Source: Octopus vulgaris (Eukaryota). Taken from it: 64,000 nucleotides of DNA. This document shows, piece by piece, positions 3,962-62,377 of the stretch. The notes under the pieces are model-generated. The model was not told the origin of the DNA and searched no databases. It was given only the letters and a program-made list of their open reading frames with translations. Numbering within the stretch: position 1 is the stretch's first letter; each line of letters begins with the position of its first letter. The position numbers and the translations under genes were made by a program. Location of the stretch: NCBI GenBank assembly GCA_951406725.2, contig OX597824.1, forward strand, positions 35,712,001 to 35,776,000. Reading direction: 5' to 3'.

Positions 3962-4380
3962 TTTTATTTGTTTATTGCCCGCAAGGGGCTAAACATAGAG
4001 GAGACAAACAAGGACAGACAAATGGATTTAGTCGATTATATTGACCCCAGTGCATAAATGGTACTTATTTAATCGACCCAGAAAGGATGAAAGGCAAAGT
4101 CGACCTCGGCGGAATTTGAACTCAGAACGTAGCGGCAGACGAAATACCTATTTCTTTACTATCCACAAGAGGCTAAACACAGAGAGGACAAGCAAGGACA
4201 GACAAACGGATTAAGACGATTATATCGACCCCAGTGCGTAACTGGTACTTATTTAATCGACCCCGAAAGGATGAAAGGCAAAATCGACCTCGGTGGAATT
4301 TGAACTTAGAACGTAGCGGCAGACGAAATGCCGCTAAGCATTTCGCCCGGCGTGCTAACGATTCTGCCAGCTCGACACTT
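3962..4380 (-). mobile_element. SINE family A, dimer
   Basis: Two tandem units; TSD ataaaccaggac(g/c)tgt at 3946-3961 and 4381-4396. Confidence 0.9.
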
Positions 4381-24476: not shown

Positions 24477-24551
24477 TATTAGTGCGTATGAGAGGTCTGG
24501 ACGTGTGCATGTATAGGGTTGGTGTATGTATTAGTATGTATTAGTATGTAT

Positions 24552-24594
<43 letters not shown>

Positions 24595-24842
24595 AGAGAG
24601 TATTAGTGCGTATGAGAGGTCTGGACGTGCGTATGTATAGGGTTGGTGTATGTATTAGTATGTATTAGTATGTATTAGTACGTATTAGTATGTATAAGTG
24701 TGTGTGTGTGTGTGTATGAGAGAGTATAAGTGCGTATGAGAGGTCTAGACGTGTGTATGTATAGGGTTGGTGTATGTATTAGTATGTATTAGTATGTATT
24801 AGTACGTATTAGTATGTATTAGTTGGTGTATGTATTAGTATG
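24477..24842. repeat. ~124-bp tandem repeat x3 in the PLE 3' UTR
   Basis: Units start with tattagtgcgtatgagaggtc-like sequence at ~24477, 24601 and 24725. Confidence 0.85.
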
Positions 24843-32419: not shown

Positions 32420-33510
32420 AAAATCACTCGAAAATCATAGACGATGCCAGGTTATCATAGTGTGATTCGCTAACATAAGTCACGTGAGTCATCAGCAAAG
32501 GTAGATAGATTATTGGAAATGTTTTCTGAAACAAGTTAAAGAATATATCTACTCGTAGAGAGGCGACTGTATTTCAGTTAACAGGGAAATTCAGATTTCT
32601 TAAATACTTACATTGTCTGTAGTTCTGCAGGAACATGGATAGTTTTGAAAGTCTGAGGTTTGTAATTCTTGCATGAAGCTTGTAATTTCCCGCATGAAAA
32701 CAAGAAGAAAAGCTTAGTTCCTATATTTAAGATAGATATACTCTATTTTCTTCCCTACAATCTTTTGGAAATTAGATATATTTCTGTAATGATGTAGCTT
32801 GCTCTTGTTTCAAGAACTAAATGCTTGGATGTGCTGTGTGTATCTGATCTTAAAAGTATTTTCGGTTAAAGCAATATACATGTTTACCACGCTGTCCACA
32901 GCTTCTACTCTGTATATTATTTTTTACAGTAGGTATCTTTACTTAGTCGTGTCTCAAAATTGATGTTCCGGTTGGATTTTCTGGGTAACATTTATGGATT
33001 TTTGGTAGTAATTATAGACTTGAGACCCTATTCCCATATTTCTCATGCAGCTGTTGGCAGCCTTAATAGAATGTTTATTGAAGAATTTGTGATATCCGTG
33101 TCTAGTGGGGAAGCGCGTACTAATCAGTGTTAGAATGATCATAGCTACATTTGTAGATACATTTAAACTATGGAGAGGATTATAACATGTTATTTTCTCT
33201 TCCTACTTTAGTATTATTTGATATGGGTTGGTCTATGTGTTTTTGCTTCTTAAATTTATTTGTTACTAGTTCTCTATTGCGATATGAAGTAGTTTTATCA
33301 AATATTTCTCTGTTTGATGATAGATAAATTTAATATGCATCTGCTAATATTCCCTGCAATGTAAGATGATTGGTGAAAGGTTGACTCTTTTACTTATACA
33401 TGTATATTTTGTTTCTACCTTTCTTTCCCGAGAGTGTATACTTGTATTTAAATTTGTGATTGCATCCTGGAAATTTGTTATCTTTACTGTTGTATTTGTT
33501 GTATTTTTAA
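32420..33510 (-). mobile_element. Decayed Penelope-like element (RT thumb/linker and GIY-YIG)
   Basis: RKITCYNPLHSLNVSTN (cf. RNIIWFNPP), RFPTRHGYHKFFNKHSIKAANSCMRN, IIYRV...MYIALTENTFKIRYTQH; CTGATGA core at 32495-32489 downstream. Confidence 0.8.
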
Positions 33511-33619
33511 ACAAATTCTTTGAAAATGCTAGTCAGTGATTTTGTCCATGCCATGCACATACATGATGTGGGATACGTCGTGTCCGCCGTATATGTATAT
33601 GTGTGTATATATATGTGTG

Positions 33620-33670
<51 letters not shown>

Positions 33671-34009
33671 ATATATATGTAGGTATATATATATGTATGC
33701 ATAAGCATATATATTTTATTTATTTATTCATTTATATATAGCGTAAACATAGTAAGTGGTTATAATAACCGACTAAGGGATAAAATATCCGTATGTACTA
33801 TCGATATCAGTTACTCGTGCTATCGTCGGGTATTGGTGTGCAGGCTCACTGTGCACGTAGAGTGCAGGTAGCAACAGGATAAAAACGAGAGTTTATCAGG
33901 AAACAAATACAGATGATCAGGAAGTGGAGAAAACCTCAGAATTGTTTAATCTGAGGTTTTCTCTATTTTCTGATTATTTATGTGTGTATACACACACACA
34001 CATATATAT

Positions 34010-34077
<68 letters not shown>

Positions 34078-34083
<6 letters not shown>

Positions 34084-34492
34084 ATATACACAAGGAAACT
34101 ACATGAGCAACTACATCGCTAAAAATAAAAGTCAAAAATACTTCTGTGCCATCGAATAGTCACAAATCTACTACAGACATGATAGGGAAAAATTTCAGTG
34201 AACAATAATAACGTCTTACTTCTGCTAAGAAAATTTTAGTATTGTTAGCTGGCAGATTTCGGCTGATGAGAAATCAGGCACCTATTTGGCGCTAAATTTC
34301 GAAACCAGTACCAAGTTGACCAGCATTACTTGTTCCAACCTAGCAGAGGTAAGACGTTATTATTGTTCACTGAAATTTTTTCCTATTATGTCTGTAGTAG
34401 ATTTGTGACTATTCGGTGGCACAGAAGTATTTTTGACTTCTATTTTTAGCGACGTAGGGTATAATGTAGTATCCTTGTGTATATATATACAT
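34078..34492. mobile_element. Fold-back element: ~150-bp inverted arms around a hammerhead
   Basis: Arms 34078-34227 and 34341-34492 (inner ~117 bp differ at 6 positions); (TA)n-rich flanks. Confidence 0.85.
34249..34323 (+). ncRNA. Type I hammerhead ribozyme motif
   Basis: CTGATGA 34263-34269, stem II GAAAT/ATTTC, GAAA 34301-34304, CCAG, TA (34309-34310); imperfect stem I ctggcagatttcgg/ccaagttgaccag. Confidence 0.7.
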
Positions 34493-34577
34493 ATCTAATA
34501 TTGTATGTATATATTTTACTAATTTGTCTGTACGGTCGATAATTCGCTTGCCACTCGTGACGGTATTTTTATACCAT

Positions 34578-34706
<129 letters not shown>

Positions 34707-34923
34707 CATACGTGCATACATACATGATAAAAATACAATTGAAATGTAGTCAAGATTCACTAGACAGATTCAGTTCTTTCATTATTATTGGGAAAAGAGA
34801 AAGTGTCAACTCGCTTTATGAGTTCATTTTTAAACTAAAGCCAGCGTTAGTCCAGGTGCTAATCGCTTGTGCACATGAATTACACATCTTGGGTTTTAGG
34901 GCTGTTTACACTTTTATTACCAA

Positions 34924-35308
34924 CTAGCAGTATCGCCCGGCGTTGCTCAGGTTTGTAAGGGAAATAACTATAAAGCATTTTTAGAGAGTTATAGCCAAAA
35001 AAATAGCAAAAAAATGGAAAAAAAAATGATGGTAAATTTTTTTTGAGAGTTAAAAAAGGTGGAGTTGCGTCCCCTAGACGGTCTGTGGTTTGGGTTTCTG
35101 ATTCTCGACCCCATGTCGAATTTATCGATTTTTTCAGAACTGGGGGAACTTTTCAAAATTTTCGCTGCGTTAGTTTTGAATTATGACATTGGGCTATGTG
35201 TGTGTCAAGTTTCATCAGAATCGGTTGAAAGCCGTGGTCAGAGTGAGGGTACGAGAAAACAGACACACAGAAAACGCACAGACAAACTGCCGTTTATATA
35301 GAGAGAGA
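34924..35308 (-). mobile_element. Non-autonomous Helitron
   Basis: On the - strand A|TC(35308)...subterminal hairpin cctgagcaacgccggg...CTAG(34924)|T, inserted at AT without a TSD. Confidence 0.8.
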
Positions 35309-35364
35309 TTATGTACTCATATTTATTCTTGTATCAATCGCTCTTCTTGTTTCCTGATGTTTTT

Positions 35365-35536
35365 ATATTATTATTATTATTATTATTATTATTATCCTCC
35401 TCCTCCTCCTCCTCCCACTCCTACTTTTTCTTTTTTTTTCTTCTCCTTCTTGTCCTCCTCCTCCTTTTTACTACTACTACAACCACCACCATCACCACTA
35501 CCACTTCTACTAATACCACCACCTCCACCACGACTA

Positions 35537-48561: not shown

Positions 48562-48753
48562 AAGCATCTATATAGTAACTGGCACTCTATAAGCATCTAT
48601 ATAGTAACTGGCACTCTATAAGCATCTATATAGTAACTGGCACTCTATAAGCATTTATATAGTAACTGGCACTCTATAAGCATCTATATAGTAACTGGCA
48701 CTCTATAAGCATCTATATAGTAACTGGCACTCTATAAGCATCTATATAGTAAC
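48562..48753. repeat. 29-bp minisatellite, ~6.6 copies
   Basis: Unit aagcatctatatagtaactggcactctat; copies almost identical. Confidence 0.95.
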
Positions 48754-49675: not shown

Positions 49676-50296
49676 GGATCTTTTCCTTTTGAACGGCAGA
49701 TGTCAACACACTTTCTAGTTAACTAAACACTTTTAAACTTCGTATACTGGTAAAATGTGTTTATAAAACATCATTTTCTCTTGGTTTTATTAAGAAAATT
49801 CTATAGTTTGTAAGATATTTCGTCTGAAAATTCGAGCATTTCGGCAATTTTAACCAATCGATTACCTCCATTCAACTAAAATCATTTGCTGTGTCTAAAA
49901 CTGAGACAACATCCTGTAACTAACCCTAAACCTCCCCCCTAACCCAAACCCTAAATCTTTTTTCTTAATTGTTAAATTAATTTAATTCCATTGCTTTAGT
50001 TTTACACGCGTAACAATTAAATTAATTTAACAATTAAGAAAAAAAATTAGGGTTAGGGTTAGGGTTAGGGGGAGGTTTAAGGTTAGTTACAAGATGTTGT
50101 CTCAGTTTTAGACGCAGCAAATGATTTTAGCTCAAAAGAGAGCATAGGATTGGTTGAAATTCGAAAAATTAAACTACGTTAAACAAACAAATTACAATTT
50201 TCTCAAGAAAGCCAAGAGAAAAAAATGTTTTATTTTGACAGATTCTACCAGTATACGGAGTTTAGAAATTGTCTGCCGTTCAAAAGGAAAAGATCT
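49676..50296. mobile_element. Fold-back MITE (Merlin-like) with internal telomere-like repeats
   Basis: Termini ggatcttttccttttgaacggcaga / tctgccgttcaaaaggaaaagatct; perfect 8-bp TSD agactcat at 49668-49675 and 50297-50304; arms ~290-310 bp; (TTAGGG)n at 50048-50069. Confidence 0.88.
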
Positions 50297-61785: not shown

Positions 61786-62377
61786 AAGGCGGCAAGTTGG
61801 CAGAATCGTTAGCACGCCGGGCGAAATGCTTAACTGTATTTCGTCTGTCGCTATGTTTGTGAGTTCAAATTCCACCGAGGTCGACTTTGCCTTTCATCCT
61901 TTCGGGGTCGATTAAATAAGTACCAGTTACGCACTGGGGTCGATATAATCGACTTAATCCGTTTGTCTGTTCTTGTTTCTCCTCTCTGTGTTTAGCCCCT
62001 TGTGGGTAGTTAAGAAATAGGTATTTCGTCTGCCGCTACTTTCTGAGTTCAAATTCCGCCGGGGTCGACTTTGCCTTTCATCCTTTCAGGGTCGATTAAA
62101 TAAGTACCAGTTAAGCACTGGGGTCGATATAATCGACTTAATCCGTTTGTCTGTCCTTGTTTATCCTCTCTGTGTTTAGCTCCTTGCGGGTAGTAAAGAA
62201 ATGGGTATTCCGGTATATCGTCTGCTACTACGTTCTGAGTTCAAATTCCGCCGAGGTCCACTTTGCCTTTCATCCTTTCAGGGTTGATGAAATAAGTACC
62301 AGTTACGCACAGGGGTCGATGTAATCGACTAGCCCCCTTCCCCCCAAATTTTCAAGGCCTTGTGCCTAGTGTAGAGA
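61786..62377 (+). mobile_element. SINE family A trimer
   Basis: One head and three ~180-bp units; flanked by the direct repeat tttatatgtg(a/g)gg. Confidence 0.9.

Follow-up and report, generated by a model that had tools for sequence, protein, structure and literature searches.

A fold-back holding a hammerhead motif in the Octopus vulgaris genome: probable decayed copy of a dispersed 446-bp retrozyme family

Within a 64,000-nucleotide stretch of Octopus vulgaris contig OX597824.1 (hereafter the window), an inverted repeat at 34078-34492 holds a hammerhead ribozyme motif in its loop. Is this a short element that moves as arm, loop and arm around a self-cleaving centre, or did the fold-back arise when a copy of some other repeat was inserted?

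The inverted repeat and its 446-bp family

The first-pass annotation had reported two arms of ~95% identity over their inner 117 bp around a 113-nt loop, and both features were confirmed. The inner arms were identical at 111/117 positions (94.9%; 136/150 in the ungapped arm-vs-arm comparison), all six inner differences were transitions, and the loop spans 34228-34340. The predicted fold had an energy of -247.9 kcal/mol (z -27), and an equally good fold was found in 0/100 shuffles. The lack of an ORF also held, as the longest stop-free frame was 59 aa, and no ORF for reverse transcriptase (RT) plus GIY-YIG was found in the element itself. The extent first given to the element was too short, however: the sense copy ends at 34580 and not at 34492, which makes it 89 bp longer. 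The locus consists of a sense copy (34229-34580), truncated on its 5' side, of an ORF-less 446-bp repeat that is dispersed in the genome, with an inverted partial copy ahead of it. Because the sense copy starts at 34229, the loop is the part of that copy without a duplicate in the inverted piece. The features of the locus are:

34002..34088, no strand: (AT)n tract, period 2, 43.5 copies, where the inverted arm ends on its outer side, overlapping the arm's TA-like end site A; likely the split insertion target
34078..34227, minus strand: inverted partial copy that has its end at TA-like site A and covers the unit from about 208 to 350-377
34229..34580, plus strand: 5'-truncated sense copy, unit 88-446, with its end at site B and 89.8% identity to the family majority
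34248..34324, plus strand: minimal type I hammerhead, with stem I formed by 34248-34262 and 34311-34324 (internal loop), core, extended stem II and a predicted cut after 34310
34305..34308, plus strand: stem III tetranucleotide CCAG, where the family version is palindromic CCGG
34341..34492, plus strand: right arm of the hairpin, the sense-copy portion that the inverted piece duplicates
34477..34529, plus strand: TA-like end site A (unit 340-392), the end point of many copies and of this locus's inverted arm
34522..34580, plus strand: "tail" between end sites A and B, found at this end only and overlooked in the first-pass annotation
34581..34706, no strand: (TA)n/(CA)n tract after end site B

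A target site duplication, which in animal non-LTR retrozymes exceeds 4 bp when present, would be masked here by the TA tracts on either side. None of the 71 open frames of the window matched Pfam above the curated cut-off, a search that short exons could escape. One sequencing run guessed to be RNA yielded five contigs, each <95% alike to the locus and representing other copies, so that they speak neither for nor against expression here. The locus is an ordinary decayed insertion without sign of a host role. Elsewhere, the window contains tandem arrays of 184-bp period at 3982-4329 and 61836-62330 (probably a common dispersed repeat), a 29-bp minisatellite at 48562-48753 (6.6 copies, 98% matches), a 124-bp tandem at 24477-24823, and a short degenerate TTAGGG run at 50047-50086.

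We searched the genome of the window (2.8 Gb), and all family counts are lower bounds. The loop gave at least 45 matches from 282 candidates, the 3' part of the unit at least 982 candidates, and the exact core at least 89 matches vs 0 in the control. The unit is 446-447 bp long, as read from a 2.5-unit tandem (L061) that holds two hammerheads where the window copy holds one, and it has 34.5% GC, a longest stop-free frame of 60 aa, and no tRNA. Contigs of three public runs labelled with three organisms also contained the family (733, 1149, and 306 records). On this point the original view of the locus is supported: the repeat is non-coding, retrozyme-like and of Penelope type, and its hammerhead is a minimal one of type I.

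The 124 loci retrieved for the family came to 94 distinct places after de-duplication. Copies in the family are tandem or 5'-truncated. The copy ran on into a preceding unit, as a partial tandem, in 38/94 places, a value inflated by the last query, which selects for tandems (11/30, 12/30, 5/30, and 28/28 by query). Inversion was one-sided: an inverted piece stood at the 5' side in 32/94 places and at the 3' side in 2/94 (p = 3e-8), in keeping with the earlier identification of the inverted arm as the inverted partial pLTR known from Penelope-like elements. The remaining 62/94 places were without a 5' inverted piece. About a third of copies carried a fold-back, each with its own breakpoint, which speaks against a one-off inversion unique to this locus. 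The inner breakpoints of these copies were scattered, and a whole hammerhead lay between arms of >=100 bp in only 4/94 places; in the other fold-backs it was within the duplex or absent. L081 and L091 (C9, about 47 kb apart) had the same fold-back breakpoints and 98% identical upstream sequence, and are probably a local duplication of one event.

MITEs and foldback DNA transposons have inverted repeats around a short non-coding centre and occur at TA-rich sites, and the locus had first been described as MITE-shaped. In the 446-bp family, by contrast, the inverted repeats were missing from most copies, were not terminal on both sides, and had no fixed length. The copy search proposed to reveal a common arm-loop-arm layout with common end points found neither among the 94 places. 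The window hairpin is predicted to be very stable, and one other copy (L034) has nearly the same inner breakpoint (unit 209 vs 208), both of which would suit an element kept in this shape. The scattered breakpoints and one-sided inversions nevertheless largely refute a fixed MITE-like layout for the family. They agree with published descriptions of Penelope-like elements, in which copies are truncated at the 5' side or partly tandem, a 5'-truncated copy can stand inverted, and one end carries a tail (parts of PMC8557442 and PMC3846280). MITE identity was rejected as fixed terminal inverted repeats and a common size were not kept among copies.

Hammerhead fold in the family and at the locus

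The letters of the hammerhead core, and the cut predicted after 34310, were as first described: CTGATGA (34263-34269), stem II (34270-34274 with 34296-34300), GAAA (34301-34304), CCAG (34305-34308), and TA (34309-34310). The motif fits the consensus published for the minimal hammerheads of Penelope elements, in which stem III is palindromic (part of PMC4209133). Rfam hammerhead models, which had been suggested as a check, did not figure among the 40 hits obtained for 33000-35500 at an E-value limit of 10.

The family provides a broader view of the fold. Stem III was CCGG in 46/56 family copies that were not picked by the exact-core pattern, core and CCGG were both intact in 23/34 copies found via flanking queries, and the position of 34307 read G in about 98-99% of contig depth across three sequencing runs. 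A type I core with stems I and II and a short stem III was supported, with 91.8% of cells paired vs 20-43% in slid controls. One stem I pair was U-A in 43 of the 56 sequences, C-G in 6, U-G in 6, and unpaired in 1, the window copy. These patterns make the hammerhead fold credible at the family level. Overall covariation was weak (0.097 vs 0.091, equalled in 21/500 shuffles), and the core letters of copies found by flanking queries had 10 changes vs 16.5 expected (p = 0.06), so there is no clear selection after insertion.

The window copy itself is damaged. Its C-A mismatch in stem I is the sole mismatch at that pair in the family set, and its stem III palindrome is broken, with a predicted CCAG self-duplex of +1.4 kcal/mol vs -8.3 for CCGG. 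Because of these two changes the window copy is probably inactive. No second hammerhead was found near it, which leaves it without a dimer partner, and such minimal motifs are reported in vitro not to cleave as monomers and to cleave at a low level as dimers (part of PMC4209133). On these grounds the self-cleaving loop originally proposed is unlikely at this locus. An element moved or kept as arm-loop-arm, whose transcript would offer Dicer or ADAR a long dsRNA and cleave itself in the loop, is very improbable: the layout is rare, the core change rate is not clearly under background, and stems I and III of the window copy are broken.

Hammerheads are not confined to this family in the genome. 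We found 483 core matches vs 26 for the control, belonging to several families. A third family (L101-L108, e.g. L103:4705-5172) has a long stem II region, about 450-580 bp common to its loci, and solo hammerheads, and further, rarer cores were seen at L109-L111, L113, and L114.

Two end sites, paired arms and a young sister family

The end point of a copy is either of two TA-like sites: A, at unit 340-392, or B, from unit 425 onward. For the 446-bp family, the counts for the coarse end-site classing, (TA)5+ proximity, arm similarity, stem III variants by copy type, CpG decay, and the place of the hammerhead in other fold-backs rest on an older locus set in which a few distinct places were merged by 80-mer. 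In 45 loci picked by their hammerhead, a coarse classing gave 18 ends at A and 27 at B. A (TA)5+ tract lay <=30 bp from the aligned 3' end in 53/74 loci vs 297/2961 control positions (10%); as an alternative to (TA)n targeting, the tracts could have grown from the element's own ends. At two-armed loci the outer ends lay at opposite sites in 19/22 classifiable cases (p = 4e-4), with 3 exceptions and 10/32 loci unclassified; L081 and L091 are probably a single event in this set. The window keeps this rule, having its inverted arm at A and its sense copy at B. The tail, about 70 nt long, was present at one end only in 19/22 classifiable loci.

How the two arms relate to each other bears on a fold-back self-priming origin for the inverted arm, in which a cDNA of the same family folds and copies back, or an antisense RNA primes itself. 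The inverted arm of the window (unit 208-377) repeats sequence wholly contained in the sense copy (88-446), and the two have 7 non-majority letters in common, as self-priming would give, and self-priming on an antisense template has been argued for rotifer Penelope elements (part of PMC3846280). Across 21 loci, the two arms resembled one another more than they did the median other copy (Wilcoxon p = 0.004), while in 4/21 they did not; gene conversion between arms could add to their similarity. Each arm carried sequence missing from the other at six loci (L010, L027, L029, L039, L063, and L160), and therefore each arm was made on a template and neither on the other. Such loci, together with L184 and L196 of the young family described below, need two template-directed syntheses and cannot come from pure self-priming. 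Self-priming also does not predict opposite end sites, and no palindrome was present at the window junction 34227/34229. We consider it an improbable origin of the inverted arm.

A much younger 360-bp family with the same core (63-67 core matches) had 95-99% identity to one natural unit. We examined 16 of its loci, 6 hand-picked partly for several hits and 10 further places. Of these, 11/16 were two-armed, and opposite end sites were found in 11/11 (unit 210-214 vs 254-259). Arms of one locus had subfamily letters in common, and at L099, L183, and L196 they shared a variant seen nowhere else. At L184 and L196, each arm had sequence that the other was without. The shared private variants and opposite sites point to one RNA having been copied from both cut DNA ends. 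Tandem arrays that diverge head to head, the largest with 2.4 plus 4.4 units, occurred among L095-L100 and L183-L201 (e.g. L095:3335-5777), and one arm at L095 was longer than four units. Isolated pieces of 37-38 bp at L141:6276-6313 and L096:6076-6112 consisted of the young-family tail between the end sites followed by (TA)n, and are apparently tail-only insertions. Judged from these sequences, the 360-bp family is the best candidate for an active retrozyme in the genome and may still be active.

The CCAG form of stem III had an uneven distribution in both families. In the 446-bp family it occurred in 4/20 copies with an inverted piece vs 0/36 without (p = 0.013, post hoc), with CTGG in 1 and 2 copies respectively. 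In the young family CCAG was found in 5/67 copies vs 1 with CTGG, always in the outermost unit of one arm at a two-armed locus, and its site is the most frequently changed CpG in the unit. All CCAG loci in the two families (window 34305-34308, L010, L021, and L064; L095, L096, L099, L100, and L187) had an inverted piece. CpG decay was higher in fold-back copies (29/299 vs 61/917), alongside higher non-CpG change. CCAG could stem from plain decay of a CpG, from a source array that already carried it, or from a change at the time of insertion.

Insertion model and relation to known elements

We judge it very likely that the locus belongs to a 446-bp non-LTR retrozyme family. The fuller account is that it is an old, probably inactive copy, likely inserted by a Penelope enzyme, with a hairpin likely made at insertion, and we regard this as likely overall. 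Under the model, tandem source copies would be transcribed, and paired hammerheads would cut by means of the CCGG palindrome to release unit-length or circular RNA. A Penelope RT/GIY-YIG protein supplied in trans would open (TA)n DNA by cutting its two strands. Each end so formed would then start reverse transcription within one shared RNA, with one start at site B and the second, about 70 nt upstream, at site A. The two cDNAs would stop at variable points and be joined head to head, and where they overlapped the transcript would fold back. At the window, the site-B strand would have reached unit 88 and the site-A strand unit 208, leaving the hammerhead in the loop by chance, with later drift. 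For this detailed two-ended priming we see about even chances.

The anole Penelope enzyme is reported to cut and extend both DNA strands, and two internal RT start sites bound its tail; that enzyme primes without homology to the target, in contrast with the priming at TA-like sites proposed here (part of PMC11167929). We also put forward, more tentatively, that one multimeric or circular RNA was copied from both (TA)n ends, each obligately primed at a different TA-like site, with strand displacement or rolling giving arms of up to four units and the CCAG change possibly part of the process.

Intact 781-aa ORFs with an RT domain plus a GIY-YIG domain at the C terminus are present in the genome. 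They belong to an abundant young Penelope-like element (L135-L142, e.g. L137:1481-6330) with internal repeats in its 3' region and an overlapping frame of ~480 aa ahead of the ORF that had no Pfam match above the cut-off. This two-frame layout is unusual compared with the single ORF described for Penelope-like elements. No canonical hammerhead was found in scans of the 781-aa family. A Penelope-like copy of another family (L141:2321-5483) contained a 766-bp inverted repeat with 100% identity.

A homologous autonomous partner would be expected if the unit were the orphan pLTR of an autonomous Penelope-like element and not a self-standing retrozyme. In support of such a source, truncated Penelope-like elements have been given as the origin of solo minimal hammerheads and of opposite-strand pairs 100-700 bp apart (part of PMC4209133). 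No autonomous partner was found: the unit had no match beyond TA-like stretches to 28 GIY-YIG loci, with 150 of 6136 GIY-YIG candidates scored, a small share. No RT/GIY-YIG ORF of >=180 aa was found near the hammerhead in 20 loci (19 of other hammerhead families, 1 of the 446-bp family); L111 had a LINE-like RT fragment about 2.4 kb from its hammerhead. Against an orphan pLTR, copies that extend 5' (38/94) enter another unit and not coding sequence, almost every upstream match listed linked two loci that have inverted pieces, no shared ORF end appeared, and L061 holds 2.5 units. We consider an orphan pLTR quite improbable.

Like animal non-LTR retrozymes, as described in parts of PMC7229834 and 10.64898/2026.07.22.740005, the 446-bp family has an ORF-less unit within the 150-450 bp range, a type I hammerhead, low GC, and both tandem and solo copies. 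Unlike them, it is mostly solo or <2.5 units, often has an inverted piece placed head to head, and ends at two fixed sites; Cervera and de la Pena 2020 (PMC7229834) do not use the word "inverted" in their main text. Cephalopods are not covered in the text of either paper as consulted. Self-cleavage and linear and circular unit-length RNA characterize retrozymes, and under the model would be expected of the tandem source copies of the 446-bp family. With endonuclease-bearing Penelope-like pLTRs, as far as covered in sections of PMC4209133, PMC3846280, PMC8557442, and PMC11167929, the family has in common a palindromic short stem III, 5' truncation, partial tandems, an inverted 5' copy, a tail at one end, and an AT-rich target. 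It differs in having no ORF, no homologous autonomous element found, two end sites that both resemble the (TA)n target, and a tail of about 70 nt vs the 30-40 nt described in those sections.

In L1 twin priming, two target ends prime on one RNA and produce a 5' inversion. The arms of the 446-bp family, by contrast, often overlap to form long inverted duplications, and there is no poly(A) end. We found no literature report of twin priming in Penelope. Our literature search likewise found no description of hammerheads or retrozymes in octopus or other cephalopods; repeat libraries and the PMC7229834 supplement were outside its scope, and the family may already be catalogued there. Animal retrozymes have been argued to be non-autonomous Penelope derivatives, from a sampling that, in the portion of the preprint available to us, included no mollusc (Li, Clavereau and Pollet 2026, bioRxiv 10.64898/2026.07.22.740005). 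With the 446-bp family, the known range of non-LTR retrozymes would seem to take in a cephalopod-type genome, one that holds several such families.

The locus itself is of low interest, and the part worth following is the family-level end-site rule together with the young sister family. The origin of the tandem and inverted ends of Penelope-like elements, and the reason for their preference for microsatellites, is a stated open point (part of PMC8557442), and the 446-bp family and its sister supply genomic counts on the formation of such ends. The hundreds of such hairpins could be substrates for RNA editing or small RNAs. If the more tentative reading is true, retrozyme families would record how Penelope-type inverted repeats are formed, and the 360-bp family would make the mechanism directly testable.
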